Position numbers and translations under genes: made by a program
DNA from: a virus
DNA length: 64,000 nt
Direction: 5' to 3' (one strand)
IMG/VR virus record: IMGVR_UViG_3300025158_000018
Notes under the pieces: model-generated
Told to the model about the DNA's origin: nothing
Database searches by the model: none
Seen by the model: the letters and a program-made list of their open reading frames with translations, nothing else
Shown: positions 2,150 through 50,035 of the stretch, piece after piece
How positions within the stretch are numbered: the first letter of the stretch is position 1
Layout: each line of letters starts with the position of its first letter

Positions 2150-3301
2150 ATGAAAAATCTATATGAACAACTAAATTGTTTGGCCCACGACGAAAATTCC
2201 CCATTCTATCGCGTGACCCACGTTGGTCCGCATGATGGGGCAGAATATCATGTCTTCTCGTATCATATTGGCTCCTATCAAGATTTTTGTCAAGATGGGG
2301 CACTGGAATGTCGTGGAACCATGTTCCGAATCGAAGAAAATGGTCCGGTACTGGTGTCTCTGCCGTTTTCCAAGTTCTTCAATTATAAAGAAAATCCTTT
2401 CACTATGGATTTGAATCTGTCAGCAGAAAATGTTGATTATGTGACAACCAAAGAAGACGGTTCACTGATTTCAACGTATCTGACTGCGGATGGGCGTCTA
2501 GCCCTGAAGTCCAAAACATCATTGACTTCTTCAATGGCGGTAGAAGCAGAAGCATTGCTTAAAACTATCGAACCTGTAGTCGGTTCTGAATTGGCTCTGT
2601 GTGATGCATGTTGCCTACTCGAACTACAAGGGTTCACTGTCATTATGGAGTATGTGTCCCCAGCCAACCGTATTGTCTTGCCGTACGATGCTTCAAACCT
2701 TGTTGTGCTTGGAGTACGGAAGCGGAACACTGGTGAACTTATGTCGTTCGAGGAAATGAATCATTACCTCGGTCCTTACCTTGTCAAGAATCATGTTCCA
2801 GACATCTACGATTTTGACGAGTTCTTTTCTTCAGTTCCACGAATGAAAGGAATCGAAGGATTTGTTGTACGTTTGAAAGATGGAATTATGTTCAAAATGA
2901 AGACCGACGAATACGTGGCTTTGCATCATGCCAAGGATTCTGTTCGTTCACCACGCAGGTTGATGGAAGTGGTTCTCGAAGAAGCTTCTGATGATATCCG
3001 ACAGATGTTCGCAGATGATCCTCAAGCTTTGGCAGAAATCGACAACATGGAACGATATGTAACTCATCTTGTGGCTCATTTGACTAAACCTGTTGATGAG
3101 TTCTGGGAAGCTAATCAGCATTTGGAGCGTAAAGACTTCGCTATCAAAGCACAGCAGGAACTTGATCGTAAACAGTTCTCGATTGCAATGGGTCGATACT
3201 GTGGCAAGGAGATCGACTACAAAGCTCTTGTGAAGAAGAACCATCAAGAGTTCTTGAGAGATTATCAAACAACTCTGGTGGAGTCCACAGAACAAAACTG
3301 A
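2150..3301 (+). CDS. rnlA: RNA ligase 1 (T4 RnlA family)
   Basis: Collinear similarity to T4 Rnl1 as recalled: ALECRG.MF, KFFN..ENPFTM, motif I TKEDGSLIS, NRIVL, EGFVV. Confidence 0.9.
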   Translation: MKNLYEQLNCLAHDENSPFYRVTHVGPHDGAEYHVFSYHIGSYQDFCQDGALECRGTMFRIEENGPVLVSLPFSKFFNYKENPFTMDLNLSAENVDYVTTKEDGSLISTYLTADGRLALKSKTSLTSSMAVEAEALLKTIEPVVGSELALCDACCLLELQGFTVIMEYVSPANRIVLPYDASNLVVLGVRKRNTGELMSFEEMNHYLGPYLVKNHVPDIYDFDEFFSSVPRMKGIEGFVVRLKDGIMFKMKTDEYVALHHAKDSVRSPRRLMEVVLEEASDDIRQMFADDPQALAEIDNMERYVTHLVAHLTKPVDEFWEANQHLERKDFAIKAQQELDRKQFSIAMGRYCGKEIDYKALVKKNHQEFLRDYQTTLVESTEQN

Positions 3302-3377: not shown

Positions 3378-3455
3378 TGGGGTGATCGACGGGACTTGAA
3401 CCCGCAAGTACCTGATTCACAGTCAGGCGTGTCTACCAATTCCACCACGACCACC
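3378..3455 (-). tRNA. tRNA-His (anticodon GTG), with extra 5' G pairing discriminator C
   Basis: hand-folded cloverleaf: 8-bp acceptor incl. G-1:C73, GTG anticodon, TTCAAGT T-loop, encoded CCA. Confidence 0.8.
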
Positions 3456-3619
3456 ATAGGTGAAGATCTATCGCGACATAAATGGCGACATGATGTCGCG
3501 ATCCGCGAAACTCTTCAAAACCCAGTTACAAAGTCTGGGGACTGCATCTCGTTCAGTCTGCTCAACTTCACGTGCTCCGTTGTTTTAAGACGCTTTGCAT
3601 CCCTTCTATATCGTTGATT

Positions 3620-3694
3620 TGGTAGCGAAGAGCGGAATCGAACCGCTGACCGAAGGGTTATGAGCCGATCCATCTACCACTGATTGTACTTCGC
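3620..3694 (-). tRNA. tRNA-Met-like (anticodon CAT), possibly degenerate
   Basis: 76-nt cloverleaf frame with CTCATAA loop, canonical T-arm and CCA, but 1-72 T.T mismatch and two mismatches in anticodon stem. Confidence 0.5.
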
Positions 3695-3740
3695 AATAGT
3701 TCAGTTTATTTATTTATTATAGAGCTTTATTTTTATTATG

Positions 3741-4370
3741 TCAAGCGTTTTTTCTTCCGAACGTTGAAGTCTGTGAATGACAGTTAGGGCACAACAATCT
3801 AAGATTTTCTAACCTGTTGTCGTTTCTAATTCCATTAATATGATCTACCTGAAAAACTATTTTTTCTTGATTCCAAGAAGTTATGCCACACCCAGAACAT
3901 TCATTTTTTACTTTCTTTTTGAACCTAGTGCGTAATGTCGCTTGAGACACGTCTGATTCCTCACAAAAAACATCTTCATCAGTCCTCGTCACGCGACCTC
4001 TTTTTCGTGCGCTCCTAGTAAAATGAGAGACATCTATTTGATAATGGTCTAATAACTTTTTTATTGACTTGTAATTTCCACCTCTGTCAGCCAACCCTAG
4101 GCCTCGTAGTACATCCCTGAGAGAATCAGATTCAAATACTATATCTTCGACCATATCTTTTCCATATTTTTTTATGGTAGAATAGCCGAACTTAAAATGA
4201 GAGACGTTTAACTTTGTATCCTCTATGAAAGAGGTTAAATAATGTTTAGCGTGAGAATTTTTAGAAGAAATTTTCAGTCTCCTTAACACCTCAGACTTTG
4301 AGTTAGATTTTTTTATAATTTCTCTTAAAGCATCTTCATTCAACATTCTCAATTCTTTAATACCGGCCAT
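3741..4370 (-). CDS. HNH homing-type endonuclease with tandem N-terminal helical DNA-binding repeats
   Basis: C-term CSGCG..QVDHINGIRNDNRLENLRLLCPNCH HNH motif; repeated ..VSHF modules N-terminal; TATAAATA 18 nt upstream. Confidence 0.7.
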   Translation of the reverse strand: MAGIKELRMLNEDALREIIKKSNSKSEVLRRLKISSKNSHAKHYLTSFIEDTKLNVSHFKFGYSTIKKYGKDMVEDIVFESDSLRDVLRGLGLADRGGNYKSIKKLLDHYQIDVSHFTRSARKRGRVTRTDEDVFCEESDVSQATLRTRFKKKVKNECSGCGITSWNQEKIVFQVDHINGIRNDNRLENLRLLCPNCHSQTSTFGRKNA

Positions 4371-4441
4371 ACTTTCAAATTTATTTACTACTATTTATAT
4401 GAAATAAATCGGTCTGTAAATAAATCAAATGGTCGGTAGTT

Positions 4442-4480
4442 AATGATAAAAATAGACCCCACGTTTTGCAGGGTCTATTA
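4442..4480 (-). terminator. hairpin terminator downstream of tRNA-Pro
   Basis: tagaccc..gggtcta stem followed by T-run on minus strand. Confidence 0.5.
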
Positions 4481-4485
4481 AATAT

Positions 4486-4561
4486 TGGTCGGGGTTGCAG
4501 GATTTGAACCTACGTCTCCGCCTCCCAAAGGCGGTGCTAAACCAAGCTCAGCTAAACCCCG
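4486..4561 (-). tRNA. tRNA-Pro (TGG)
   Basis: perfect acceptor cggggtt/aaccccg, anticodon stem ccgcc/ggcgg, loop ttTGGga, T-loop TTCAAAT, CCA. Confidence 0.85.
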
Positions 4562-4686
4562 TATATTTAAAAATTAGTGATCTACGGAACTTGTAAGGCG
4601 ATCAACCCTTACCTCTATGCGTTCCATACACGCCGCTGTCAATATTATTGTGAAGGCGTCAGACAGCGAATTAAGCTTTCACAATT

Positions 4687-4772
4687 TGGTGGGTGTAGCT
4701 GGATTCGAACCAACACGCACAAAGGCACCGGGGTTACAGTCCGGGGGGGATACCAGTTTCCCCATTACACCC
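4687..4772 (-). tRNA. tRNA-Tyr (GTA), type II with long variable arm
   Basis: acceptor gggtgta/tacaccc, loop ctGTAac, 14-nt variable arm, T-loop TTCGAAT, CCA; palindromic TATAAATA 17 nt upstream. Confidence 0.7.
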
Positions 4773-4942
4773 AAATCTTCAACTTACGATAATTGTACAG
4801 CTATTTATAGCTAATGTCAAGTCCAGAGCATACATTTGCATCTCTGTAGTAGATTTAATTAATTCTCGGAAATGTCTGGCCCTGCTACAACATCTTGAGT
4901 AATACTCATTACCCAGCCCTCCGATGAATCACGATAAATCTA

Positions 4943-5335
4943 TTACGAGCGTGTCTGGTTACAGCAATTTTGTTTGGCTTGGGTATCTCGTAGTACATTT
5001 TTTCTCCTACCACTATATTCTGGAATGTATTTTCTAAATCTAAGAGATGCCGTCATTGGAACAATGTTGTTCTCACGACAGAAGTGCCTCAAAGAAGTGT
5101 ATTTACCCGAAGTAAATTCAGTATACCACTCTCTGGTCTCTTCATCCAGACCTTCAGTTTTCAATTTTGAAAAAATTGAAGACAAATGCTCAGATTTGCA
5201 TCTCATCCTACAGAACTTGGATTGTGGGCCTAGCCAATCATCCTTCTTGCGAACAATGGGAGACCCGCAACGGATGCAAGATTTGTATCTAGCACCCATT
5301 AAGATTCTTCCACGGATTGTTTTTTCAAAACCCAC
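4943..5335 (-). CDS. hypothetical Cys-rich (zinc-finger-like) protein
   Basis: CIRCGSP..CRMRC motifs; overlaps next gene by 37 nt. Confidence 0.35.
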   Translation of the reverse strand: MGFEKTIRGRILMGARYKSCIRCGSPIVRKKDDWLGPQSKFCRMRCKSEHLSSIFSKLKTEGLDEETREWYTEFTSGKYTSLRHFCRENNIVPMTASLRFRKYIPEYSGRRKNVLRDTQAKQNCCNQTRS

Positions 5336-5883
5336 TGTTCCATGTATTCAGTCAAACAATAATCAGATTCATATCCAATGATGTCGTCTTCAACCCAATT
5401 ACGCTTTCCCCTGAGGCGGTTGATTGCTCGATACGCAATGTTCGGAGTAAGACCGGTGTCATTGGGAGTGTGAACAAAATTTTCTCTCTGCCAATACAAC
5501 ATGTCAGAGTCATCGTCCAAAATCAAATATTCATTGAACCACAGGCCATGATCCTTGTTGGTGTCAATCCATTTCGAGATTTCTTGACCCCGAACACCAG
5601 AATCTAGCACTGGAGTATAATCCAGAATAGGATACCTAAGACCCTTGTTTTGAAGGATAACAGTCAATTCCTCAATGGAAAAACACATCCTCCAAGAAGA
5701 ACTGACAACCACCTGCGCACCAGATACTTCTAGCATCTTGTTCAATATGCTGACAGAAACCGGGTTGATGGCATCCATACGTTCTTCTGATTGGATAGCG
5801 TATTGTGGGGTGTTCAACACCCCATCAATGTCAAGAAAAATGATCTTGCTGTCAATGTTTAACTTGTGTTTAGATGGATTCAT
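5299..5883 (-). CDS. HAD-superfamily phosphatase
   Basis: motif I FLDIDGVLN, motif II SSSW, motif IV LDDDSD. Confidence 0.6.
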   Translation of the reverse strand: MNPSKHKLNIDSKIIFLDIDGVLNTPQYAIQSEERMDAINPVSVSILNKMLEVSGAQVVVSSSWRMCFSIEELTVILQNKGLRYPILDYTPVLDSGVRGQEISKWIDTNKDHGLWFNEYLILDDDSDMLYWQRENFVHTPNDTGLTPNIAYRAINRLRGKRNWVEDDIIGYESDYCLTEYMEQWVLKKQSVEES

Positions 5884-5884
5884 T

Positions 5885-6235
5885 TTACCAATCCATCTTC
5901 TTGAAATTTGGAAAAGTTAATTCAGCTTCAACTGTTTCCACTTCCCCATTTTGGATTCGAGCCTTCCACATGTCCCCATTCTCTTCACCCTCACCATGGA
6001 TTTCGATACGAAGATGGGGAAATGTACGACTGAATTCAATCAACTCAGATTCCCACATATACCACATAATATCGTCCGTTTCAAAAGCCAATAACTTCTT
6101 TCCAGTACGACCAGAAAGAGTAATATCGACGGGATAGCAGCTGACTGCCTTTTTAAGCTTAAATTGAGCAAACTCTGCCTCGTCAGCGTCATTAAATCCA
6201 GTAACTGTTACTTCGTATGAGGTGTAATATCCCAC
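5885..6235 (-). CDS. hypothetical protein
   Basis: ORF abutting upstream gene. Confidence 0.45.
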   Translation of the reverse strand: MGYYTSYEVTVTGFNDADEAEFAQFKLKKAVSCYPVDITLSGRTGKKLLAFETDDIMWYMWESELIEFSRTFPHLRIEIHGEGEENGDMWKARIQNGEVETVEAELTFPNFKKMDW

Positions 6236-6343
6236 AATAACTCTCCTTAATGTTGTTATACGATCAATATACCACAGATAAACAGGTTTGTAAAGATAAA
6301 GAATTGTTGTTTGTTTGTAAATGTAAGAATTGTAAAGAAAAAT

Positions 6344-6565
6344 TTACCTTTTTTCGGCTTTTTCGAGTCTGTCATAGTAATCGGGGAATTCGTTGAGATG
6401 GTCCAGAGCAATCTCTCTAGCGACTTGTTTGTCTGTGGTATGCTCTAGCTCTACTTTAATTCCCTTGACAAGCTGAGATTCGATCTTAGACAGAGCTACG
6501 CCATGTTTTGTTGCGATATCTTTGGGTGAAGGGGTTTTAACGTCTAGGAGTTTTTCTAAAAGCAT
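6344..6565 (-). CDS. hypothetical protein
   Basis: ORF with TATAAATA late-promoter motif ~22 nt upstream (6590-6597, minus). Confidence 0.45.
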   Translation of the reverse strand: MLLEKLLDVKTPSPKDIATKHGVALSKIESQLVKGIKVELEHTTDKQVAREIALDHLNEFPDYYDRLEKAEKR

Positions 6566-6600
6566 GACAGGATAGTGTTTGTTGTATCCTATTTATAGTT

Positions 6601-6685
6601 TGGTACCCGAGGTGGGACTCGAACCCACAACCCTTAAAGGGAGCAGATTTTAAGTCTGCCGCGTATGCCGTTCCGCCACTCGGGC
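6601..6685 (-). tRNA. tRNA-Leu (TAA)
   Basis: anticodon stem gcaga/tctgc, loop ctTAAaa, long variable arm, T-loop TTCGAGT, CCA. Confidence 0.85.
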
Positions 6686-6789
6686 CATAAAACGAAAGAG
6701 TCTCAAACGCATACCTAACTCCTCATGCCGCGACACCCTCGGCGGTTTTCTCGCCGAATGAAACGGCGAAGACTGCGTTTTTTGTCAAA

Positions 6790-6993
6790 TTACTCGTTAT
6801 ACTCTGTTCCGTATTTATCAAGAAGCTTTTTGAGAAGTTCTCGTTCTTCCTGTTCTTTCAATTCTGCTTCCGCTTTTTTCCTCTCCGCTTCTTTGAGTTT
6901 ACGCGCTTCAGCCTTTCTTTTACGTTCTCCAGCCTTTCTTTTACGTTCTTCATCTTTCATCTTTCTAGCTTGAAACTCTTCATCAGTTTCCAA
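6790..6993 (-). CDS. hypothetical K/E-rich coiled-coil protein
   Basis: ORF; underlying DNA has a 24-nt tandem duplication. Confidence 0.35.
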   Translation of the reverse strand: METDEEFQARKMKDEERKRKAGERKRKAEARKLKEAERKKAEAELKEQEERELLKKLLDKYGTEYNE

Positions 6994-7249
6994 GCGTTCA
7001 TATTCTATCGTAAAAGTATAATAATATCCGTCATAATCATCAACAACGACAACAGATAGAAAAGCAGACTCCCCATAATTTTCAATCAGATCATCTATAT
7101 TTTTTCTTAATTCCGAAAGAGTATTATACTCAATCAGACTCGAACAAATGTCCTTTTTTCCTTAACGATGATCTTTTTCATTTATAGGACTCCGGTTTGA
7201 TTTAACGCTAATGTACCAAAAGAACGATATGATGTCAAGTTTTAAATTT

Positions 7250-7335
7250 GGTGCCCCCGGTAGGACTCGAACCTACACACTGTTTCCAGCAAGAGCTTTT
7301 GAGACTCCCGTGTCTACCAATTCCACCACAAGGGC
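7250..7335 (-). tRNA. tRNA-Leu (CAA)
   Basis: acceptor gcccttg/cgggggc (2 GU), loop ctCAAaa, long variable arm, T-loop TTCGAGT, CCA. Confidence 0.75.
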
Positions 7336-7604
7336 AATGTTCGTGAGTTCCGCAGCTAGTATCCCCACTAGGACTAATTTCGCTTTCAACTCTAGCACTG
7401 TCGTTTTTTACCATCAAACGATTAGGTCATGTTAAACAAGGCAACACATGAATTGCACCTTTATTCGACAGCTTTTTCTTTCTTCGAATGTACCCGGCCT
7501 AGTCCTGTACACTCAAGAGTAGCTTACACTCTTTCCAGTCTTCTGGCGACTGGTCTGCCAAATCACCACACCTAAAATATAAGTGCTGAGCTAGGTTTTT
7601 AATT

Positions 7605-7689
7605 TGGTGCCCCCGGTAGGACTCGAACCTACACGCCTCTCGGCAATAGCTTCTAAGGCTATCGTGTCTACCAATTCCACCACAGGGGC
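7605..7689 (-). tRNA. tRNA-Leu (TAG)
   Basis: anticodon stem atagc/gctat, loop ctTAGaa, long variable arm, T-loop TTCGAGT, CCA. Confidence 0.8.
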
Positions 7690-7728
7690 TTTGATTTCAA
7701 ACAATTATATCAGTATATATCACAGTTG

Positions 7729-8109
7729 TCAAGTTTTATTTCGGAATCGAAGCTCATTTAACATAGCCTCTCTCACAATCTCTCCCATGTAGAAACATTC
7801 TTCCAGACATGCTCTAATATGTTCTGAAGACATATCTTTCAACTTCACATAAGTTAAGGGTTGGTCCCCATTCTTACCGTAAGTTCCCCATGTCAATGCC
7901 TCTCTGATTACCTCGTGAGGTTCGTCAGAATAAACATTGAGGTCTATTTCATCACCGTTGGCGCTTCTTCTAGCATAATCCAAACCACCATCAACAATAT
8001 ATGTTTTACCATTGGTTGAGTCCACATACTCGATATAGTCGTGTACATGTCGGCTTTCGAGCACCATGCCATCCGGGGTTTGAATCGCGTTTCGAATAAG
8101 TGTTCTCAT
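7729..8109 (-). CDS. hypothetical protein
   Basis: ORF; 4-nt overlap with next gene. Confidence 0.45.
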   Translation of the reverse strand: MRTLIRNAIQTPDGMVLESRHVHDYIEYVDSTNGKTYIVDGGLDYARRSANGDEIDLNVYSDEPHEVIREALTWGTYGKNGDQPLTYVKLKDMSSEHIRACLEECFYMGEIVREAMLNELRFRNKT

Positions 8110-9131
8110 ATTTCCATCAGCCTTGACATGAATCCTTTCATGGGCCGCTCAGACCCAAAGAAGAAACTACGTCCCTTGTGGGAGCCTTGTCGGAGTCTGG
8201 TATATACGCTGGATAGCTTGTCTATGTTTATTCTGTTGAAAGACATGATTTCATTCCCAGAAGAATCATAAACGCCAGCAGGACCATCCGAAGATTTGAA
8301 CAAAAATCCATCTTGTTCATATTTCCTCGATTCCGACTTCAATAGAGTAAACATCTTGTCGTCATCACCTTCATTTCCCACCACCATGATAGAAGTTTCT
8401 TCTTCATGTGATTCTTTGTCTGTGCCTTGATTTTCAACCCAAGCACCATCAACCCACACAAACCCGAACCCTGCATTACGCAACGACGAAGCCAATTTCT
8501 GATTGGCCGAAATGTTATCTTTCATCGTTCTTTCGCCACGAAACGCAGTAATAATACCAACAGGTTTATTGCTGGTAAAATGATTGTAAACGCGAGACAA
8601 TTTGACCTCGTTGATCATTTCCAAATCTGGTTGTTCTTGAATTGTGGATTCTTTAAGAAATTCTAATGTCATCGCCTCGTCTCCATGACTTTCGTCCAAC
8701 CGATCATTAAGTATATCAGGTGGTTCAACAGTTTGCAAGCGATCTGATTTAATTTCCAGAATTTTCAAATCTACATACGTTCCCATTGTGTTATTGCTGG
8801 TAAAAGTATGGACCCAATTCTTCAAAATTTGTTTGGTTTTTGGTGTTAGAGACCAAAGAGTGACAGACCAGTAGTTCCTATAGTTTCTGACTCGAATCCA
8901 TCCACGCTGTAAGACCAGAGTGATAAGCTCTTCCCGAGCATTGCCCTCTTGATTGTAATTCTCCCCGTGTTTATCATACAAATTCTTAACAAACTCGGAA
9001 GAAACCCCAAATTTGGTTGGGTTTTCAATGACAGTGTGGGAATGCCTTCCGGTTTTGATGATGTCTCCTGTAGGACCTATCCAAAGACCAAGGTTTATAG
9101 GATTCATTTGTTTCAGTTCGGCAAGTTTCAT
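8106..9131 (-). CDS. hypothetical protein (341 aa)
   Basis: long ORF, no motif recognised. Confidence 0.5.
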   Translation of the reverse strand: MKLAELKQMNPINLGLWIGPTGDIIKTGRHSHTVIENPTKFGVSSEFVKNLYDKHGENYNQEGNAREELITLVLQRGWIRVRNYRNYWSVTLWSLTPKTKQILKNWVHTFTSNNTMGTYVDLKILEIKSDRLQTVEPPDILNDRLDESHGDEAMTLEFLKESTIQEQPDLEMINEVKLSRVYNHFTSNKPVGIITAFRGERTMKDNISANQKLASSLRNAGFGFVWVDGAWVENQGTDKESHEEETSIMVVGNEGDDDKMFTLLKSESRKYEQDGFLFKSSDGPAGVYDSSGNEIMSFNRINIDKLSSVYTRLRQGSHKGRSFFFGSERPMKGFMSRLMEI

Positions 9132-9192
9132 GGAAGTGATATACTCGTATTGATCAATTTATTTATACAGTCTTCCTCGGCGTTCCACCTCA

Positions 9193-9639
9193 TTAACAGT
9201 CGAACTTCTCCAAATATTCATTAATCGTTACGAATGCCGTACTGTACTTCTTCATTCTCTCGAAATCCTTTCCACGCAATCCTTTCAGCCGTGTTATGTC
9301 GGAATTATCTCTCAAGTCTTCTCGCTTTACCCTGAGCGCATCTTTATTGTGTTGCATGTCGGAGATATACTCTGAATAAGACTGACCCTCTTTGTGAGTC
9401 AACAGTCTCAGAGCATTGACAACCCTTGAACTGAAGCCTTCTCTTTCCAAGTCCTCAAAGGTCAAATCAGAATCTTCGACTGCATCGTGTAAAATAGCAA
9501 TGCACATTAGCTCTTCGTCATCTGTGCGAAGCCTCATGGCGATTCTCATTGGATGGAGAATGTATGCCTTGCCACCTTTGTCTCTTTGCCCTAGATGTGC
9601 CTGTGAGGCGAGCAGAACAGCCTTATCAAACATCATCAT
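9193..9639 (-). CDS. HD-domain hydrolase resembling RelA/SpoT-type (p)ppGpp hydrolase domain (small alarmone hydrolase-like)
   Basis: LASQAHLGQRDKGGKAYILHP .. AILHDAVED pattern typical of RSH hydrolase HD domain. Confidence 0.55.
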   Translation of the reverse strand: MMMFDKAVLLASQAHLGQRDKGGKAYILHPMRIAMRLRTDDEELMCIAILHDAVEDSDLTFEDLEREGFSSRVVNALRLLTHKEGQSYSEYISDMQHNKDALRVKREDLRDNSDITRLKGLRGKDFERMKKYSTAFVTINEYLEKFDC

Positions 9640-9808
9640 CTCCTACTGAAATGGTATAAACCCGATAGGTAATGTGCGGACCATGTTTAAGACTTTGGGC
9701 ATATTTTTCAGCCTTTATTCCATCGAAAAACGCCCTAGAATGTATATTGAGAACATCGTCGCCTTTGTACTCGTAATTGGGACAAACTATGTAGATTTCT
9801 TGTGTCAT
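9626..9808 (-). CDS. hypothetical small protein
   Basis: ORF. Confidence 0.3.
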   Translation of the reverse strand: MTQEIYIVCPNYEYKGDDVLNIHSRAFFDGIKAEKYAQSLKHGPHITYRVYTISVGDDDV

Positions 9809-9837
9809 GATATTTCTCCTTATTTACAGGTCCCCTT

Positions 9838-10126
9838 GACTTCTCCTCTTCCTTTAGGAAGAGGATTCTTGTTTCACAGTCCACTACATTGTTCTCTACA
9901 AGAACTTTAGATTTATGTCGGACTCCGCAAGCTATCCCCGTATGCCCCACGGTTCTTTTTTCTACCACTTTTAAGGCAGATGTTTTTTTACAATATTATT
10001 CAGCACTTGGTTCTCGATACTGAATATTTTATATTGTACCACTATCTAGTGTTTATGCCAAGTGGTGAAATTTTTAGAATTTGTCCCCTCCCTGAAGGAA
10101 GGGGTCTTCTTTGTTTTCTTGATAAA
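9838..10126. repeat. copy A of ~300-bp inverted repeat (partner at 49681..49986)
   Basis: reverse complement aligns at roughly 90-95% identity by eye to 49681..49986; includes hairpin cctcttcc-ttta-ggaagagg and 3' end of CDS 10074..10715. Confidence 0.75.
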
Positions 10127-10715
10127 CCATTTTGATTTTCTTCTTCAGTTCTGGAATGGTAATGCCCCGTTCGGCTCCTTTAAAGAAGAACCCGCGAAAG
10201 TCAGATTCGACAAACGATCCAATAGGTTTGACCGAATCTTCAACAACTACCCTACCATTAGCTACAGTGAACAACAGGATCGGCTTGGCGTCTTCTTCGC
10301 AGGTCTCCCCGTCAAACAGTTGGCAACGGAGATTTAGGAAAGGAAAAGCTTCAGCGATCAGTCCCCACTCGGCGGCAACAGCTTCTACATCAGGCCATTT
10401 TCCGATGTTCTTGTTGTTACAACCAATTGTACCATCCCAATCACACCAACCATTCGGACCGCCTATCCAACAACTCATGATACGTTCATTTGTCAGATAG
10501 TAGAGGTCGAGAACCTTGTAGGTTTCTCGATTCTTCTCGGATGCTTCGATCCATGAAATGCCATCATCACTTTCTTTTACAAGGGGGGAACAGACTCTGA
10601 ACTTGTTCCGAAAACTCTTGATCGTTACAACTCCATCGAAAGTTAGGAAGATTGGAATCGGTACGCAGAAGGATTTCCGCAGCCTGTTCTTCAGTAACGT
10701 TGTCACCCTGAACAA
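10074..10715 (-). CDS. hypothetical protein
   Basis: ORF; C-terminus lies inside repeat copy A. Confidence 0.5.
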   Translation of the reverse strand: MFRVTTLLKNRLRKSFCVPIPIFLTFDGVVTIKSFRNKFRVCSPLVKESDDGISWIEASEKNRETYKVLDLYYLTNERIMSCWIGGPNGWCDWDGTIGCNNKNIGKWPDVEAVAAEWGLIAEAFPFLNLRCQLFDGETCEEDAKPILLFTVANGRVVVEDSVKPIGSFVESDFRGFFFKGAERGITIPELKKKIKMVYQENKEDPFLQGGDKF

Positions 10716-10769
10716 TCATTCCGGGCCATTTGTTGGTAATCTCACGGGTATTCTTGAATGTCACGTTGT

Positions 10770-11069
10770 TCATATTTGTTCCTCATTATTCTCGAAAAAA
10801 GGCTTCTCCTTATCAATCATATCACCAATCAAAGAAATTTTTTCCTGATCAGAGTATGATTGTTCTGACAAAATTTGTTTTACGTTTTTCAGAACAGAGT
10901 TATATTGAGCCATTGTATCCTTGAGAGCAGCATTAAACAAAATCTCGGAAATCAATGAATTTAAAGTCATTCCCCTTCTGTCTGCTTCTTTCGCCAGCGT
11001 CAGAACGTCTTTGTCCTCAAGTTCAACTTCAATGTTGACATACCCGTCCGATTCATTTTGTATGCCCAT
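10770..11069 (-). CDS. ribbon-helix-helix (CopG/Arc-like) DNA-binding protein, putative
   Basis: N-terminal beta-strand plus helices VELEDKDVLTLAKEADRRGMTLNSLISEIL. Confidence 0.4.
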   Translation of the reverse strand: MGIQNESDGYVNIEVELEDKDVLTLAKEADRRGMTLNSLISEILFNAALKDTMAQYNSVLKNVKQILSEQSYSDQEKISLIGDMIDKEKPFFENNEEQI

Positions 11070-11217
11070 GTGTCTGTTCCTTTCGCATTACCTGATACTA
11101 ATTATACATTAACCCCGGAAGGTTCGTCAAGTCCTTCTACCCTATTTCCAACCACTTGCGGTGGATCATTACGGACCGTGGGCTAATACGGGCATAGTGA
11201 CGCGGGGTAAAATTTTA

Positions 11218-11400
11218 CTATGTGTTAACAAATGCTTCATGCAATACGACTGAATCCATTGAAGCAATAATTGCGCCTTTGTTGAATGCTTCGATCATTG
11301 CGTTATGAATATCGTCAAAATTCATATTGTCTTCTGAAATACCCCACTCCTTGAGTATTTCATCTACTGTCGTCACACACATTTTCATAATCTTCTCCAA
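11218..11400 (-). CDS. hypothetical small protein
   Basis: ORF. Confidence 0.3.
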   Translation of the reverse strand: MEKIMKMCVTTVDEILKEWGISEDNMNFDDIHNAMIEAFNKGAIIASMDSVVLHEAFVNT

Positions 11401-11411
11401 TGTATTTGAAA

Positions 11412-11488
11412 TGGTGGGACCGGGAGGACTCGAACCTCCAACCTGCCGATTATGAGTCGGACGCTCTAACCGATTGAGCTACGGTCCC
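11412..11488 (-). tRNA. tRNA with CAT anticodon; features favour tRNA-Ile2 (lysidine) over Met
   Basis: perfect acceptor gggaccg/cggtccc, D-arm like E. coli Ile2 as recalled, loop ctCATaa with A31-T39; TilS gene encoded at 14734..15378. Confidence 0.8.
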
Positions 11489-11608
11489 AAATCTTATCCA
11501 CCCACCCCAAATCCTGTTTTTGAATTATTCTCAAAGTAAAACATACACTCTTCCGTATGCCGGTCTTGACTTTGAGACAATGTTACTTTAGACCATCAAC
11601 ATGAGATC

Positions 11609-11636
11609 ATTATACCCTATTTATTACCCTTGTCAA
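11609..11636 (-). promoter_or_regulatory. sigma70-like promoter (TTGACA-16-TATAAT), ~115 nt upstream of tRNA 11412..11488
   Basis: minus strand ttgacaagggtaataaatagggtataat. Confidence 0.4.
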
Positions 11637-11654
11637 GAAGGAATCACTCAGCAA

Positions 11655-12062
11655 TTAATACGCTGCTAGACCCACTTTAAGTGAACCACCTGCCATCTTA
11701 GCCGCAACCTGATAAATTTGATCTAGGTTGATAAACTCCATTTGTTTACTGGTAATTGCGCAAGACCAACCAGTAAGATAACGAAAATTTTCATTACCGA
11801 CCTCTATTAAAACACAACAAGTGTCATCTGTCAAGTGCTTCTGAATAATATCTTGAATATCTACATCTACATAATCACCCAAGTCATCGTCGAAGTAATT
11901 GGCAGGAAAGTTCCCGTCTCCTGAAGAAAAAATCTTGACTTCGTTAGTTTCCTCGTCAACAACATGCAATTCAATGTCAAGAGAACCCATATCTTCAAAA
12001 AACTTATCTAGGTCTTTGACTTTGAACACATTACTACGACCCGTACCTTGCCAGTATGCCAT
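11655..12062 (-). CDS. hypothetical protein
   Basis: ORF. Confidence 0.45.
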   Translation of the reverse strand: MAYWQGTGRSNVFKVKDLDKFFEDMGSLDIELHVVDEETNEVKIFSSGDGNFPANYFDDDLGDYVDVDIQDIIQKHLTDDTCCVLIEVGNENFRYLTGWSCAITSKQMEFINLDQIYQVAAKMAGGSLKVGLAAY

Positions 12063-12096
12063 TGTTTTTCTCCTTTAAGTTGAAAATCTTCAAAGC

Positions 12097-12552
12097 TCAA
12101 TCATCCCCAGACTTGCAGAATTCGACAAATTCTGCAAGAGTTCCACTCCACTTGTTGCAAGTGATTTCCTCGACTCCCGCAACGAGAGCATTGTCTGGTT
12201 CCCGAAAATATACAGTATAGTCATAAGCTTGTGAGTCGCCCTCGTCAGTCATATACAAACCTCCGACACGATCCTTATTCTGGGCGATGAACTGGGCAAC
12301 CAAGCAGCCCGGTCCGTTCGCATGGGTTCCGAGGCGAGCATCTGAACCAATACCATGGATAATTTTGATACCAGACAAAAACTCTGCCAAAGTCACACCC
12401 ACACTATCGGGGTAACCATCATACTGCTGATAGACACTGGCAATATGGCGCACTTGGTATTCACTACGTTCTTTGAAATGAATTACACTAGGGGTTCCCA
12501 TTGTTTTCTCCTTTAATTTCGGGTTCATCCTTCTCAGTGTTGATTTCTTCAA
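12097..12552 (-). CDS. hypothetical protein
   Basis: ORF. Confidence 0.45.
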   Translation of the reverse strand: MKKSTLRRMNPKLKEKTMGTPSVIHFKERSEYQVRHIASVYQQYDGYPDSVGVTLAEFLSGIKIIHGIGSDARLGTHANGPGCLVAQFIAQNKDRVGGLYMTDEGDSQAYDYTVYFREPDNALVAGVEEITCNKWSGTLAEFVEFCKSGDD

Positions 12553-12892
12553 TCTGTTGATTCAACCATGATTCCAATAGTTCGAAACTCTTGCTACCAA
12601 CAGACTGTACATGTTCGCTGTTAACCATGTTGAGCGCACCTTCATAACCAAGCGCACCAGCAACAATAATAACGACACCTTCGCGGTCTGGTACGAATGT
12701 TTTTACCATAAGGCCACCAATCAAGAAAAATGAAAGAATGATCAGAGCACCCTTTTCCCACAAAGTTTTCATGAAAGTACGGCCCTTAAGATCACTAAAG
12801 ATAAGACTAAAAAGCAACAACGAAAGCAACGAAAACCCAGACACAGCAATCACGCCCGTTGCGACAGAACGAAAATTATCTACCATCGTCAA
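12488..12892 (-). CDS. hypothetical membrane protein
   Basis: two hydrophobic segments. Confidence 0.4.
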   Translation of the reverse strand: MTMVDNFRSVATGVIAVSGFSLLSLLLFSLIFSDLKGRTFMKTLWEKGALIILSFFLIGGLMVKTFVPDREGVVIIVAGALGYEGALNMVNSEHVQSVGSKSFELLESWLNQQIEEINTEKDEPEIKGENNGNP

Positions 12893-12967
12893 AATATATA
12901 AAGAAGAAATACTACAGAACCTGTGCTCATTTTTTATTACTCCTGTTTGGTTTGAGATTACAGTATA

Positions 12968-13414
12968 TCAGGAATTTTCCAGACTTTCAAGCTGTTTAAT
13001 CTTGAGAGCGAAAAGTTCTCGATACGATTCGGCTAAATGGTCCCATTCGGGCTTGTAATCCTCATGAATAATAGAATCCTGAGTAAAGAATTGACTGTGT
13101 GAATTATGCCATTCCCACTTGTAGTTATCCACATCAAGAACTTTTAACTGTTCCGGAACCTCACCAGTCCCCTTGTAATGTTCCAGATCGGAAAGAGTTG
13201 GCTGATAGTGAATGGCTGAAATCAGTTTGACAGCAGACGTTAGAAGGTCTGCGGTATCACGAAAAACCTTATCAGAGCAACCACAATCACCAAAAGCCCT
13301 ACGCGAATAGATACTTTCTGGCAACCATGTTGCGAGATCCAATCCTAAATTAGAAATGTCATCCATCTCCCGGACGATATCTCTCATTTGGTCGATGATG
13401 CTTAAATTAAACAT
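12968..13414 (-). CDS. hypothetical protein
   Basis: ORF. Confidence 0.45.
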   Translation of the reverse strand: MFNLSIIDQMRDIVREMDDISNLGLDLATWLPESIYSRRAFGDCGCSDKVFRDTADLLTSAVKLISAIHYQPTLSDLEHYKGTGEVPEQLKVLDVDNYKWEWHNSHSQFFTQDSIIHEDYKPEWDHLAESYRELFALKIKQLESLENS

Positions 13415-14049
13415 TACATTGTTCCTTGAATTTGACTTAGTAAAAGTTTTAATCTTCCAGATTCATCTTGAGACAATTCTTTGTTCTTTGCCCAATAGCC
13501 AACCGGAGGTTTAATGATTCCGTGTTTTTTACAATATTTACCTATGGCTGAATCTGATATACCCATAATACTAGCAAGATTTGAGGTGGATGTCAACCAA
13601 ATAAGTTCTTTCAAAACTTCAGGCTTTATACTTATTTTCCTTGAGGATTCTGCGGCACATCTTTTACTACAATATTTTTTTCTTTTTCTGGAATTTCTTT
13701 TAAATTTATTCCCACACATCTGACACACTGAGTGCTTTTCATTATCAGACATAAGTTCATATCCGTTTAGTGTAACGCCACGTTCTTCTATATGCCCTCT
13801 AGCATGCACCGAAATATCTGTTATTTCTAAATTATTGAGGCTGTTATTTTTCCTATTTCCGTCTTTGTGATGAACTACCTCTGTTGGTAGTAGATTTCTT
13901 TGAAGGCTTTCTGCAACAACATAGCGGTGATAATATAATTTTCCAGATTTGTTCGACATCGGGTGATAGGGAGCATACACCACCATGTACCCCAAATGTT
14001 TATCCTCCCAAACCCTAGTACTCTTTTCAAGTGCGATAAATTTCTTCAT
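13414..14049 (-). CDS. HNH endonuclease (HNH_3-type) with C-terminal Zn-ribbon/HTH region
   Basis: VVHHKDGNRKNNSLNNLE HNH motif; CQMCG..C..C; sits between tRNA-Arg and upstream genes. Confidence 0.7.
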   Translation of the reverse strand: MKKFIALEKSTRVWEDKHLGYMVVYAPYHPMSNKSGKLYYHRYVVAESLQRNLLPTEVVHHKDGNRKNNSLNNLEITDISVHARGHIEERGVTLNGYELMSDNEKHSVCQMCGNKFKRNSRKRKKYCSKRCAAESSRKISIKPEVLKELIWLTSTSNLASIMGISDSAIGKYCKKHGIIKPPVGYWAKNKELSQDESGRLKLLLSQIQGTM

Positions 14050-14106
14050 GAAGCCCTCTCGACTAACATACTTTTTATTTATATGTTAGTCGAGAGTTTG
14101 TAATAA

Positions 14107-14182
14107 TGGCACCCTCTACAGGACTCGAACCCATACTAAGGGAGTAGAAATCCCTTGTGCTATCCAGTTACACCAAAAGGGC
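14107..14182 (-). tRNA. tRNA-Arg (TCT)
   Basis: anticodon stem aggga/tccct, loop ttTCTac, T-loop TTCGAGT, CCA; TTGACA-17-TAGTAT promoter at 14193..14221 (minus). Confidence 0.85.
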
Positions 14183-14263
14183 TATTATTTTTATACTACC
14201 ACCAAGATCAAAACCTGTCAACTACTTAACGTTCTTCCATCAAAGAACAAAGTAGTAATCGTT

Positions 14264-14674
14264 TTAATTGTTTCTATCAACCCAATTTACAGTTGGACAA
14301 TACTTATTCTTCCAACCACTAATAGTTTCCCGGATGATTCCCGGTTCCGAATTAGTAGATTTTTCCCAAAGTTGGATACTGTACGCAAACCCCACACATG
14401 CCGCCATTGTTGTAATAATTATCCAGACAATTAACGCCCAAAGAGCGAACGTAAAGAAAATAAACGGGCCACCAAATAAAACCACCACCAACTGAATTGT
14501 TCCTAGGACGAACATTCCCGCCAATGTCCCAAATGCAATTAGACAGAAGGTTAATATGGCTAGGCGAGTCCATAGTTGGCAAAGATTGTTGATATAGTAC
14601 GGGTTGGCCGGTTCCCAGAACTCCCCATACCGATGCAAAAAAGAATAAACTTGGCTGTTCTTTGAAATGTTCAT
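14264..14674 (-). CDS. hypothetical membrane protein
   Basis: multiple hydrophobic helices. Confidence 0.45.
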   Translation of the reverse strand: MNISKNSQVYSFLHRYGEFWEPANPYYINNLCQLWTRLAILTFCLIAFGTLAGMFVLGTIQLVVVLFGGPFIFFTFALWALIVWIIITTMAACVGFAYSIQLWEKSTNSEPGIIRETISGWKNKYCPTVNWVDRNN

Positions 14675-14733
14675 TGTGTGTTCTCCTGTTAGTTTAATCG
14701 TATGGTTGATTGTGTCACGCTTTTATATTCTTG

Positions 14734-15378
14734 TCAACCACTTAACTGTATCAGTGAATTATACTGCTCTTGTACCTTCTTTGCAAGAACTTTATGAATT
14801 CCCGGATTGACTTCGAGAACCTTGGGGACAAGCTCATGACGAATCTTGTTTCGCATGAATCCAGTATTCTCGTTTGAAGGATCATTGATATAAGGAACAG
14901 AATTACGCTCTGCCCATTCCAAAATTTCTTCTTTCTTAGCCATCAACATAGGCCGAAAACAATTTCCCCGCATGTACGGAACGATCTTAGGTGTTCCGTG
15001 AAAACTGGAAAACAGCCAAGTTTCTAAAACATCATCAAGATGATGCGCCAGTAAAATAGGTTCCGGATATCCGTGTTTTTCTGCCCTGTCGAAAAATGAA
15101 TATCGACGTTCACGCCAGAAATCTTCTTTGGACCTCTTTTCGGGAACGGGATCACGAAGTTCATCAGAAATAAACCCCACGCCCAAGGATTCAGAAACAT
15201 TTTTGACGAAAGAAAAAGCGTCGTCGGCGTGTTCCGTCCCATGATGATAGTGCAACACATTGATCTTCCTACGACCGTTGATTAAAAAGTCAAGAAGGAC
15301 CATAGAATCTACCCCACCAGAAACCGCCACATTGACCCGTTCTGGGATTTCTCCCAACATTCTCATCACGGGAACCAC
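14734..15378 (-). CDS. tilS: tRNA(Ile)-lysidine synthetase, catalytic N-terminal PP-loop domain
   Basis: PP-loop VAVSGGVDSMVLL, LHYHHG, RRYSFF, LAHHLDDVLETWLF, FRPML..EIL.WA...VPYINDPSN...RNKIR collinear with E. coli TilS as recalled. Confidence 0.8.
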   Translation of the reverse strand: MVPVMRMLGEIPERVNVAVSGGVDSMVLLDFLINGRRKINVLHYHHGTEHADDAFSFVKNVSESLGVGFISDELRDPVPEKRSKEDFWRERRYSFFDRAEKHGYPEPILLAHHLDDVLETWLFSSFHGTPKIVPYMRGNCFRPMLMAKKEEILEWAERNSVPYINDPSNENTGFMRNKIRHELVPKVLEVNPGIHKVLAKKVQEQYNSLIQLSG

Positions 15379-15608
15379 TCGAACAAGATCATTCCCAGCA
15401 TGTGAAACCCCGAAAGAATGACAAAAACTACCGCGATGGTGCCCAAAATGCCAATGAGAACGCAGTATGCAAAGACGAAAAGAATTCCAATGTAGAACCG
15501 AAAAGTATCCGGGTCATCACCAAAGATAGCAATAACAATATCCACCGGCAACATGAATACAGTGATGAGGATTGAGGTCAAAGTGTAGGACACGCTGCTG
15601 TTTTCCAT
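15366..15608 (-). CDS. hypothetical membrane protein
   Basis: hydrophobic ORF. Confidence 0.4.
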   Translation of the reverse strand: MENSSVSYTLTSILITVFMLPVDIVIAIFGDDPDTFRFYIGILFVFAYCVLIGILGTIAVVFVILSGFHMLGMILFEWFP

Positions 15609-15669
15609 TTTAGTTCCTGTGAGTGAATTCTATAAGAGCATACTACCATGAAAAAATCGATATGTCAAA

Positions 15670-16245
15670 TTATAGAAGTGAACGGTTTTTGAATAGTCGT
15701 TGGAATTGTTGGAAATTTTCTTCTGTAATCATGTGAATTCTGGGGGGCTTGAACCAATAATCGAGACTGGATAGTGCAGCTTCATCATCTGCATAGTATT
15801 CTGACAGCCAGTTGTATACTGTAGAAGCGAACAAAATGCCGTGTCCCTCTTCTCGAATCTTACTCTTGCCCTTTAGGTCATAGTCAATAAAACATTCTAC
15901 CACGACATGAGCCAACTCGTGGAAGACGTATGACGGATACATCATGTTATGTTCCACCCAGATCAATCCATGTCTGGGTCCCAACGTCTTTCCCCAAGAA
16001 TAACTCATGGCAGACCGTGCTTCTGGGTATAACTGTTCGACTCTAACCCCACACTTTTGAGAGATAGAGCGAACAAGCTTAGAGGCTTCAGCTTGATTGA
16101 TCTCATACTCCCTCTTGTAGAAGGAGTCATGAAACCTAGTAAAGATGTCTTCCTGCCAGTCTATCTCTCGTGGAAACTTTGTTTTTTTCTGCGGATGGGA
16201 TTGATTCACGCTTTGTACAAACTTGAGTTGGTCAATCCACTGCAT
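15670..16245 (-). CDS. putative Zn-metallopeptidase-like protein (HExxH)
   Basis: YVFHELAHVV motif. Confidence 0.4.
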   Translation of the reverse strand: MQWIDQLKFVQSVNQSHPQKKTKFPREIDWQEDIFTRFHDSFYKREYEINQAEASKLVRSISQKCGVRVEQLYPEARSAMSYSWGKTLGPRHGLIWVEHNMMYPSYVFHELAHVVVECFIDYDLKGKSKIREEGHGILFASTVYNWLSEYYADDEAALSSLDYWFKPPRIHMITEENFQQFQRLFKNRSLL

Positions 16246-16726
16246 CTTTCGGTCGATATTCCTCTATAGTTTTCTCACAGAAGCCATACACATCCCGCGA
16301 GTACTTGATAATGGTACTGATATGTGTCCAATCATCATGCAAATGATCGATGTTCATATACGCCAACCGTGTCAGTGTCAGACAGGACCTCCACTTAAGA
16401 ACATCCACAGGATTGTCCCCGAAGATGTACTCAAGGTCCATATGAACGCTGGTGCGATACGCAGTGTCCACCGCCTTGATCATCGTGAAGATGTTCCGCC
16501 GAAAATTCTGGTTCTGTAGGAACAACATGTAGGTGTCCAGATCGATAGCGTAGTGCTTCGCCCTTTCACTGCTCCCCAATCCGGGAATGTTAGGAAAAAA
16601 ATACCAACACCAATGGGTTTCCTTTCGACCTTGAACTGAAATCTCGAATAGAGCATTGGTAAGATGTTTTTTCTGCATTCTAGTGTAATCATCTAGAAGT
16701 CTTGCTTTGTCACCATTCTGGATCAT
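16232..16726 (-). CDS. DUF1810-like protein
   Basis: HWCWYFFPNIPGLGSSERAKHYAI resembles DUF1810 signature as recalled. Confidence 0.45.
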   Translation of the reverse strand: MIQNGDKARLLDDYTRMQKKHLTNALFEISVQGRKETHWCWYFFPNIPGLGSSERAKHYAIDLDTYMLFLQNQNFRRNIFTMIKAVDTAYRTSVHMDLEYIFGDNPVDVLKWRSCLTLTRLAYMNIDHLHDDWTHISTIIKYSRDVYGFCEKTIEEYRPKDAVD

Positions 16727-17363
16727 ACGTATAACCTCGGTTGATAATTTTTTCGAAACAATCTTTTAGTGAAGTCGGAGGACAGTCCTGAGACATAGAA
16801 CTGTAACTTAGTTTACCTAGCATCCACTCGTCTTTATCACGATCCAGCATGATCAGGTAATTCACTCCGGAAGCAAATCCGTCGTTCGTATACAATGTGA
16901 TCCCAACACCTTTACGATTTTTACACCCAACCTTGTGGGTAAGTTCGTAGTTGTCGAGAAGCATATTCAACGATTTTTCGAATTCTTCAAAACTGGTATT
17001 CTTTCTTACACGAATTTCCATCCCGTATGTTTTTTGTTGATTCATGTGGTCATAATACGACACAAAGTCGTTAAAGACCGTAGAAGGTAAATTGTACTTG
17101 GCATTTGGCCACGAATTATAAACCTTTTGTGTTACTGCCGCATCGTTGTCTTTTTTCTTACACCACCACAACCAATCCAAAACATCTTTGGTGGTATGTA
17201 CGTCAGGGTCAAACATGACGTTGTGCTTGCGATCCACCAGAGCAACCACGTTACCGGGCATCCCTTCGTCCAAATACTTTTGAAATTTTTCACGCAACGC
17301 ATCCAGATTTTTCCTGTCAGAACTTTGAATCTTTCTGGATCGGGAATATTTCCCGAAATCCAT
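16710..17363 (-). CDS. hypothetical protein
   Basis: ORF. Confidence 0.5.
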   Translation of the reverse strand: MDFGKYSRSRKIQSSDRKNLDALREKFQKYLDEGMPGNVVALVDRKHNVMFDPDVHTTKDVLDWLWWCKKKDNDAAVTQKVYNSWPNAKYNLPSTVFNDFVSYYDHMNQQKTYGMEIRVRKNTSFEEFEKSLNMLLDNYELTHKVGCKNRKGVGITLYTNDGFASGVNYLIMLDRDKDEWMLGKLSYSSMSQDCPPTSLKDCFEKIINRGYTYDPEW

Positions 17364-17548
17364 TCTCGTGCTTCCTTCGCACTAGGGAATTCCGTAGCAG
17401 AATTCAACAAAAAAAACATAATTTGCGCCGTTTTTGGTTAGTCGAATGAACATGCCAAATTTTGTAAGACCATCTACTTGAATGATTGCTTTCATGTGAG
17501 TATTCTATCCTATGGAAAGGGTCTTGTCAACCCCCATGTTAGAAAATT

Positions 17549-17622: not shown

Positions 17623-17629
17623 ATTGTTT

Positions 17630-49652: not shown

Positions 49653-49680
49653 GAATAACGAATTATTTTATATGGGTTAT

Positions 49681-49986: not shown

Positions 49987-50035
49987 AAAACAACATCGAA
50001 GAAAAGTGAAAGGGTGGCCTCAGCCACCCCATTTT

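Follow-up and report, generated by a model that had tools for sequence, protein, structure and literature searches.

The locus

The stretch of DNA that we have analysed, called the window below, comprises 64,000 nucleotides (nt) of a viral genome (IMG/VR record IMGVR_UViG_3300025158_000018), and our subject is the gene at positions 9193-9639, which encodes a stand-alone, single-domain hydrolase of the RelA/SpoT homologue (RSH) superfamily, here termed SAH for small alarmone hydrolase. By its sequence and predicted fold, this protein belongs to the Aph1-like branch of that superfamily. An initial interpretation made without database searches (the sequence-only reading) had placed an HD-domain protein of 148 amino acids (aa) at this position, with no strand given. 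The HD-domain open reading frame (ORF) is real, as matches to PHROG 990, PDB 7SMG, TIGR00691 and Pfam HD_4 all attest, and it lies on the minus strand.

The ORF as called mechanically (9193..9639, minus strand) has an ATG start and the expected 148 codons, but its product is most likely shorter by 2 residues. Its 5' end consists of 3 consecutive ATG codons (ATG-ATG-ATG), the third at 9633..9631, and the Shine-Dalgarno sequence AGGAG that we read at 9640..9644 on the minus strand abuts the first ATG and precedes the third by 6 nt. Public gene calls give a 146-aa product (P0001), identical on 47 metagenomic contigs of which the longest is 256,834 bp, and close SAH homologues have MFDKA as their N-terminus. 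Because of the AGGAG spacing, the public 146-aa calls and the MFDKA starts of the homologues, we place the start at 9633, so that the real protein is most likely the 146-aa product of 9633..9196 (stop codon 9195..9193) and the coding sequence occupies 9193..9633. Residues are numbered below on the 146-aa protein unless the 148-aa form is specified.

Immediately upstream on the minus strand is a 60-aa ORF to which no function could be assigned (orf60, 9626..9808). At its TGA stop codon (9628..9626) it runs 8 nt into the SAH coding sequence, an arrangement that suggests translational coupling; orf60 was not conserved beside SAH in the related phages examined. Further upstream, a sigma-70-like promoter with an extended -10 element (TTGGCA-17-TACAAT; 10033..10061, minus strand), which is also found in the second copy of a repeat described below, likely drives an operon in the order orf60, SAH, a 341-aa protein and a 126-aa protein. 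The 341-aa gene (8106..9131, minus strand) starts 61 nt past the SAH stop codon, and because of this short gap the 2 genes are probably co-transcribed. The 126-aa ORF (7729..8109, minus strand) overlaps the 341-aa gene by 4 nt, has a weak, sub-threshold match to DUF7695, and is the final gene ahead of the next strong promoter (7732..7704) and a tRNA-Leu gene.

Family assignment

The sequence-only reading had identified the product as a stand-alone RSH-type hydrolase without a synthetase domain, and had proposed profile hidden Markov models (HMMs) as a check. We found that HMM, sequence and fold evidence agree on this identity. SAH matched PHROG 990 ('metal-dependent phosphohydrolase') at E 8e-51 and the N-terminal hydrolase region of TIGR00691 spoT_relA at E 4.6e-13, and these profiles, together with Pfam HD_4, place it among the RSH hydrolases. 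Its best PDB sequence match was 7SMG, '(p)ppApp hydrolase' (phmmer, E 1.2e-31; query residues 3-142 of 148 against chain residues 7-144), and all remaining PDB sequence matches at E < 0.1 were Rel, SpoT, RelA or SAH hydrolases. Every match of the 146-aa protein was confined to the hydrolase domain, in agreement with the proposed lack of a synthetase.

The predicted fold gave the same result. An AlphaFold2 model made with 30 homologues had a mean predicted local distance difference test score of 95 and exactly 8 helices. When this model was compared with PDB by Foldseek, the 4 chains of 7SMG ranked first, with template modelling (TM) scores of 0.86-0.91, root-mean-square deviations of 1.3-1.5 A over 136-138 columns, and 40% identity; they were followed by Mesh1, PaSAH, RelH, Rel and SpoT, and the top 45 matches were all Aph1, Mesh1, PaSAH, RelH, Rel, SpoT or RelA. 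The alignment with 7SMG included the C-terminal 53 residues of Aph1 (Y90-E143), which is the segment that defines the Aph1 family, and the model has the compact 8-helix fold that lacks helices alpha0 and alpha9 of the (p)ppGpp hydrolases. A better match to another HD family, which the sequence-only reading had named as the outcome that would speak against its assignment, was not found in these comparisons: the first HD structures from outside the RSH group (a Pyrococcus HD protein, YpgQ and YqeK) appeared at E 0.35-0.74 with TM scores of 0.45 or less.

Homologues of SAH are numerous. An exhaustive HMMER search returned 18,530 cluster representatives at E <= 1e-3, of which 7,012 remained at E <= 1e-10, and tblastn located homologues in 434 phage records, from phages whose hosts include Pseudomonas, Aeromonas, Streptococcus, Klebsiella, Escherichia and Salmonella. 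The best phage match by tblastn was in Salicola phage SCTP-2 (440 kb), at 56% identity. Comparison of window positions 8000-11000 with 50,697 phage records by megablast gave no match, and the phage is therefore without a close sequenced relative. In Salmonella phage PVP-SE1, gp220 is 46% identical to SAH over 142 aa. The branch that includes the PVP-SE1 SAH and the ATfaRel enzyme of C. marina has been named 'PbcSpo' by Jimmy et al. 2020 (PMC7229694).

Active-site and specificity residues

Aph1 (adenosine 3'-pyrophosphohydrolase 1 of Bacteroides caccae, PDB 7SMG; Ahmad et al. 2023, PMC10083569) cleaves pApp, ppApp and pppApp, and does not cleave ppGpp. Its family is defined by an HD metal centre, by the 8-helix fold without alpha0 and alpha9, and by 6 residues, D24, R96, D116, R119, K133 and Y134, that are conserved in Aph1-like enzymes and not in enzymes that hydrolyse ppGpp (PMC10083569). 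To survey these positions we aligned the query with Aph1, PVP-SE1 gp220, SCTP-2 gp487 and 122 representatives from the exhaustive HMMER search.

The predicted metal ligands of SAH are H27, H49, D50 and D106, the predicted catalytic pair is E53-D54, and N110 is the predicted ribose contact. These residues align with Aph1 H33, H53-D54, D110, E57-D58 and N114, and all of them were invariant or nearly so among the 122 representatives; with Aph1 H19 included, the whole set is kept in the query. As regards specificity, 5 of the 6 Aph1 residues are kept, including the 2 that exclude ppGpp (D24 and R119): Aph1 D24, D116, R119, K133 and Y134 correspond to D18, D112, R115, K129 and Y130 of SAH. These 5 residues are also kept in PVP-SE1 gp220 and SCTP-2 gp487, and in 96-120 of the 122 family representatives. 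The positions at which Thermus thermophilus Rel contacts guanine, R43, R44 and S45, are occupied by D18, K19 and G20 in SAH, as they are in Aph1, and R115 is the counterpart of R119, the arginine of Aph1 that blocks the guanine O6.

Genes around SAH

SAH lies within an array of 11 tRNA genes on its own strand (3378-17714, minus strand), comprising His, Met (2 genes), Pro, Tyr, Leu (3 genes), Arg, Val and Thr, interleaved with HNH homing endonucleases. The array is flanked by RNA ligase genes of the PHA02142 type (363-1559) and of the T4 Rnl1 type (2150-3301), and it contains genes for a HAD_SAK_2 RNA-repair phosphatase (5299-5883) and for a TilS-like PP-loop ATPase of 214 aa (14734-15378). One of the 2 'tRNA-Met' genes, both of which have the anticodon CAU, could instead encode a lysidine-dependent tRNA-Ile2. 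Similar surroundings were seen on other jumbo-phage contigs, where homologues 57-66% identical to SAH lie in tRNA arrays: 13 tRNA genes in ~16 kb on L007, and 15, 15 and 17 in ~20 kb on L011, L012 and L018, respectively. SCTP-2 has 2 tRNA-Leu genes 2-4 kb from its SAH homologue. RNA ligases and a PP-loop ATPase occur within 8 kb of SAH in the related jumbo phages, RNA ligase 2 and a phosphatase occur near it in Hena1 and SSBI34, and a CCA-adding enzyme and PseT do so in Aeromonas phage Aswh_1.

The 341-aa protein encoded downstream has a C-terminal half that resembles the S-adenosylmethionine (SAM) lyase of phage T3 (Foldseek matches 8BB1 and 7OCK, target-normalised TM 0.62-0.69) and matches Pfam S-AdoMet_lyase at 32.6 bits. 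For its N-terminal ~170 aa, the fold of which was confidently predicted, no relative was detected, and no sequence match to the protein was found in PDB or in the phage records. The protein may be a SAM lyase that counters restriction or BREX and carries a new N-terminal module. We considered and rejected it as a cognate toxin of SAH, since its model shows a C-terminal domain like that of the T3 SAM lyase and nothing that resembles a synthetase. Its family has 28 members among 5.8 billion proteins, and tRNA genes were nearby at all 4 family loci inspected (the window, L001, L052 and L053). A strict adjacency of the 2 genes was likewise rejected: in L052 they are 3 kb apart and in reversed order, and there is no conserved operon of SAH and the 341-aa gene. 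The 145-aa gene beside the L052 homologue is unrelated to SAH. In the window, SAH is an orphan, paired with another enzyme of the counter-defence type.

Proposed function and its alternatives

We consider it probable, by analogy with Aph1 and the PbcSpo enzymes, that SAH is an Aph1-like adenosine 3'-pyrophosphate hydrolase that serves the phage as a counter-defence enzyme against toxic small alarmone synthetases (toxSAS). The enzyme would be expressed early from the host-type promoter, together with the SAM-lyase-like gene. An Mn2+ or Mg2+ ion held by H27, H49, D50 and D106 would act with E53-D54 to activate a water molecule, and the 3'-pyrophosphate would be cut from the adenosine nucleotide, so that pApp, ppApp and pppApp would yield AMP, ADP and ATP, respectively, plus inorganic pyrophosphate. 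The base pocket, as shaped by D18 and R115, would accept adenine and reject guanine. In this manner SAH would erase the products of host toxSAS that act as abortive-infection or toxin-antitoxin effectors; its targets would be (pp)pApp and, plausibly, also the 3'-pyrophosphate that CapRel, FaRel2 or PhRel-type enzymes put on tRNA A76; in chemical terms, a tRNA end so modified is a pApp moiety.

Work on related phage enzymes bears directly on this proposal. The SAHs of phages PVP-SE1 (PbcSpo) and SSU5 (PaSpo) each neutralise all 5 toxSAS tested, and Jimmy et al. suggested that SAHs allow phages to evade defences based on alarmones (PMC7229694). The sequence-only reading had offered 2 roles for SAH, namely the neutralisation of alarmone-producing toxins or defence effectors and the resetting of host stringent signalling. 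We favour the former because Aph1-like enzymology is (p)ppApp-specific; for the same reason a reset of the stringent response is less well supported. The general idea of such a role is correct and is not new, since experiments on known phage SAHs of the Aph1-like branch have already been published (PMC7229694). Some observations weigh against our assignment. The Pfam HD_4 match is marginal, at 27.3 bits against a cut-off of 27.2. The sixth signature residue, Aph1 R96, is D92 in SAH; this position, which is distal to the active site, is G in PVP-SE1 gp220 and N in SCTP-2 gp487, and since it is R in just 57 of the 122 representatives, R96 is not a mark of the whole family. Also, the link to the published neutralisation assays passes through PVP-SE1 gp220, which we infer to be most likely the construct tested by Jimmy et al. 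because it is the sole match to SAH in the PVP-SE1 genome.

Membership in another family of HD phosphohydrolases with no link to alarmones, such as dNTPases, YpgQ/YqeK or the HD domain of CCA-adding enzymes, is so improbable that we regard it as effectively refuted: the generic Pfam HD profile does match, at 18.7 bits and under its cut-off, and many phage records are labelled just 'metal-dependent phosphohydrolase', but all significant sequence and structure matches are RSH hydrolases, and conservation extends beyond the HD pair to the RSH-specific E-D pair, N110 and K129-Y130. It is more difficult to set aside a (p)ppGpp hydrolase akin to Mesh1, SpoT and RelH that would shut off the host stringent response, although we judge this unlikely. 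SAH does fall within the RSH hydrolase superfamily, and its homologues are found under the name 'guanosine-3',5'-bis(diphosphate) 3'-pyrophosphohydrolase', but such database names are automatic annotation. Among purified Aph1 homologues, all 12 hydrolysed ppApp and 2 of the 12 had modest ppGpp activity (PMC10083569). Against these points stand the replacement of the Rel guanine contacts by D18/K19/G20, the presence of the O6-blocking R115, and the absence of alpha0 and alpha9 from the model; moreover, no ppGpp activity is detectable with wild-type Aph1, which gains it through the double substitution D24R/R119A (PMC10083569). SAH might instead protect the phage from a (p)ppApp synthetase toxin of its own, as an immunity protein or type IV antitoxin like those of the Aph1-Apk2 (MuF toxin) and ATfaRel-FaRel pairs, and this is the native context of the founding members Aph1 and ATfaRel (PMC10083569, PMC7229694). 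The genome measures at least 257 kb, of which we inspected 64 kb, and this leaves such a toxin some room. Known pairs are adjacent, however, and SAH is flanked by a 60-aa ORF and a SAM-lyase-fold protein. We joined window ORFs into pseudo-proteins for a Pfam scan that took in ~65 of them, most of those of >= 130 aa, with a few long and most short ORFs falling outside it, and found no RelA_SpoT synthetase, MuF or TnpB domain in the ORFs scanned. Neither a synthetase nor MuF was listed beside the homologues on 6 related contigs, and fewer than 2% of Aph1 homologues adjoin MuF or portal genes (PMC10083569). We therefore think a private toxin very improbable. No integrase was seen in the 64-kb window.

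The remaining alternative overlaps with the counter-defence function that we prefer, and differs from it solely in the substrate that matters in vivo. It holds that SAH acts mainly on tRNA rather than on free nucleotides, stripping from the CCA end the 3'-pyrophosphate added by CapRel, FaRel2 or PhRel/PhRel2 and restoring aminoacylation. We regard this as a possibility that is somewhat doubtful at present. Such a reaction is chemically coherent because pApp, a substrate of Aph1, is also the moiety present at a pyrophosphorylated A76, and the adenine-specific pocket would suit A76. In vitro, tRNA that FaRel2 has pyrophosphorylated can be aminoacylated again after treatment with the PbcSpo enzyme ATfaRel or with human MESH1 (Kurata et al. 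2021, bioRxiv 10.1101/2021.04.30.441581), and according to a later preprint the SSU5 SAH takes off the tRNA 3'-pyrophosphate modification. The position of SAH inside a same-strand tRNA array, the arrays around its jumbo-phage homologues, and the recurrence of RNA-repair and tRNA genes near SAH in the window and its relatives are all consistent with a tRNA substrate, as is the presence of 2 basic residues, R110 and K119 (148-aa numbering), that are common to PVP-SE1 gp220 and are E and N in Aph1. On the other side, tRNA islands in general attract accessory genes, and the gene with the SAM-lyase domain, itself unrelated to tRNA, is found in the same islands whether or not SAH is present (L052, L053). 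There is no tRNA gene within 8 kb of the homologue on L009 and a single one on L005, none within 4 kb in PVP-SE1, and none within 10 kb in Hena1, SSBI34, AhFM11 or Aswh_1. The jumbo phages are also akin to one another, so that the shared position may be inherited synteny. A general association of SAH with tRNA arrays was rejected: it is true for the jumbo-phage clade and not for the Vequintavirinae or Straboviridae relatives. Within that clade, we put forward tentatively that the Aph1-type hydrolase could be a dedicated tRNA 3'-end 'de-pyrophosphorylase' and a module of a tRNA-maintenance island. Together with the phage tRNAs, the RNA ligases, the HAD repair phosphatase, and the TilS-like and CCA-adding enzymes, it may keep up translation against CapRel-type toxSAS, and the adenine-specific pocket may then read tRNA A76.

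The 5' leader of the operon

The promoter at 10033..10061 is part of a repeat that forms the 5' leader of the operon. Copy 1 (9836..10117, minus strand) consists of ~40 nt from the 3' end of an upstream gene, a hairpin, the promoter, and ~190 nt that resemble an omega-RNA scaffold. Copy 2 lies at ~49676-49975 on the plus strand, with a terminator extending to 50037, and is inverted relative to copy 1. The 2 copies form an inverted repeat of 125 nt at 95% identity, or ~280 nt when the alignment is extended, and in each a near-consensus sigma-70 promoter is followed by ~190 nt of structured RNA (folding z-score -3.5). We found no Rfam match for the leader RNA at gathering thresholds or at E <= 1. 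A 20-mer from the scaffold core, ACCGTRGGRCATACGGGRAT, occurred in 27 IMG/VR contigs, in most of them immediately 3' of a gene whose product ends in CPxCHxKHDRDxNAxxNI. The 2 such genes that we checked encode TnpB, with OrfB_IS605, Cas12f1-like TNB and HTH_OrfB_IS605 domains. Because the scaffold core directly follows TnpB genes, the leader RNA is, judging from this sequence context, the scaffold of a TnpB omega-RNA (right-end RNA); compensatory changes were seen in 13 of its 21 predicted base pairs.

Both copies in the window lack tnpB, of which a degenerate remnant of the 3' end remains, and a regular-expression search for the TnpB C-terminal motif found none in the window. The similarity between the copies stops exactly at the junction of scaffold and guide (the scaffold 3' end, 9836). 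In copy 1 the 'guide' position is occupied by the ribosome-binding site and start of orf60, and the SAH operon thus appears, from the sequence, to be driven by the promoter and leader of an omega-RNA-like element. An intrinsic terminator (50013-50037) closes copy 2, which therefore looks like a stand-alone small RNA of ~240 nt. When we searched the window for a trans target of the copy 2 'guide', it matched only itself. The element adjoins SAH in the window phage alone (L001, L002) and not in SAH-bearing relatives; it was acquired recently and does not belong to the SAH system. Possible explanations are that it serves in trans as the guide of a TnpB or TldR whose gene lies elsewhere, or that it is the right end of an insertion sequence, now decayed. 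Similar copies without tnpB were noted in Enterocloster phages CB457P1 and CB473P3 (L023), and at L030:9264-10512 the scaffold follows a 364-aa ORF instead of a TnpB gene, which is another tnpB-less context; the C-terminus of this ORF (...EGVVFR...FKAINPKF...) is RNA-ligase-like, by eye only.

Other genes in the window

A permuted (two-piece) transfer-messenger RNA (tmRNA; Rfam RF04321, 60.9 bits) and a gene for a ClpP-like protease abut each other on the minus strand (51977-52429 and 52429-53133), an arrangement suggesting that the phage brings its own module for trans-translation and the degradation of tagged proteins. The tag encoded by the permuted tmRNA is AANDADFDSNANGFALAA. Additional enzymes that act on RNA ends are a CCA-adding enzyme (38298-39485, plus strand), an exoribonuclease (30930-31469, plus strand) and a kinase (60154-60663, minus strand). 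The first is of class II, with a match to the PolyA_pol head domain at 9e-33; the others are a Rv2179c-like 3'-5' exoribonuclease and an AAA_33 kinase.

A gene for a NADAR-domain protein is followed directly by one for a calcineurin-like phosphoesterase (42822-44002), and a gene for nicotinamide phosphoribosyltransferase (NAMPT) is found elsewhere (61331-62761), all on the minus strand. These genes are candidates for a counter-defence that would work through salvage of nicotinamide adenine dinucleotide (NAD+) and reversal of ADP-ribosylation. An NAD-dependent DNA ligase is also encoded in the window. Finally, 2 tandem paralogues of ~588 aa (44035-45804 and 45878-47638, minus strand) have DNA repeats in common (for example 45046-45097 and 46904-46955), and no Pfam match was found for the paralogue at 44035-45804.

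Comparison with known systems

SAH adds a confident, well-modelled jumbo-phage member to the Aph1/PbcSpo hydrolases. It lends weight to the idea that large lytic phages are equipped with orphan adenosine-3'-pyrophosphate hydrolases, which would be broad antidotes to abortive infection of the toxSAS type. Its recurrent placement in tRNA and RNA-repair islands provides a testable hypothesis about substrate, pyrophosphorylated tRNA versus (pp)pApp. Phage SAHs, their neutralisation of toxSAS and the specificity code of Aph1 have already been published, and SAH opens no new kind of biology.

The more distant enzymes Mesh1, PaSAH, RelH and the hydrolase domains of Rel and SpoT share with SAH the superfamily fold and the HD/ED core (TM 0.7-0.79). 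They differ in that they hydrolyse (p)ppGpp (and, in the case of Mesh1, also NADPH), have at least 9 helices and are mostly dimers, and in that their guanine-contacting R-R-S is D-K-G in SAH. The SAH of Salmonella phage SSU5 is likewise a stand-alone phage enzyme and has been used experimentally to detoxify toxSAS, but it belongs to another SAH subfamily (PaSpo) and is set beside the window SAH by description only.

PVP-SE1 gp220 is closer to SAH, being a stand-alone phage enzyme with no adjacent toxin and with the same specificity residues. The PVP-SE1 SAH, which we equate with gp220, has reported activity against both (pp)pApp-producing and tRNA-pyrophosphorylating toxSAS (PMC7229694; Kurata et al. 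2021). Differences are a 20-aa N-terminal extension and H for D at position 109 in gp220, and the location of its gene, in the Vequintavirinae, outside tRNA arrays. Aph1 and SAH are of similar length (149 and 146 aa, respectively) and ~40% identical over the whole chain; both are phage-encoded, and they share the 8-helix HD fold (TM 0.88), the metal and catalytic residues, and 5 of the 6 specificity residues, the exception being Aph1 R96, which is D in SAH. Aph1 itself is a homotetramer (PMC10083569). The clearest contrast is one of genetic context: in a temperate phage, the Aph1 gene immediately follows the gene for its cognate toxin, a MuF-fused (p)ppApp synthetase, and encodes an immunity protein, whereas the window SAH is an orphan: no toxin gene was detected near it, and its phage is large (at least 257 kb).

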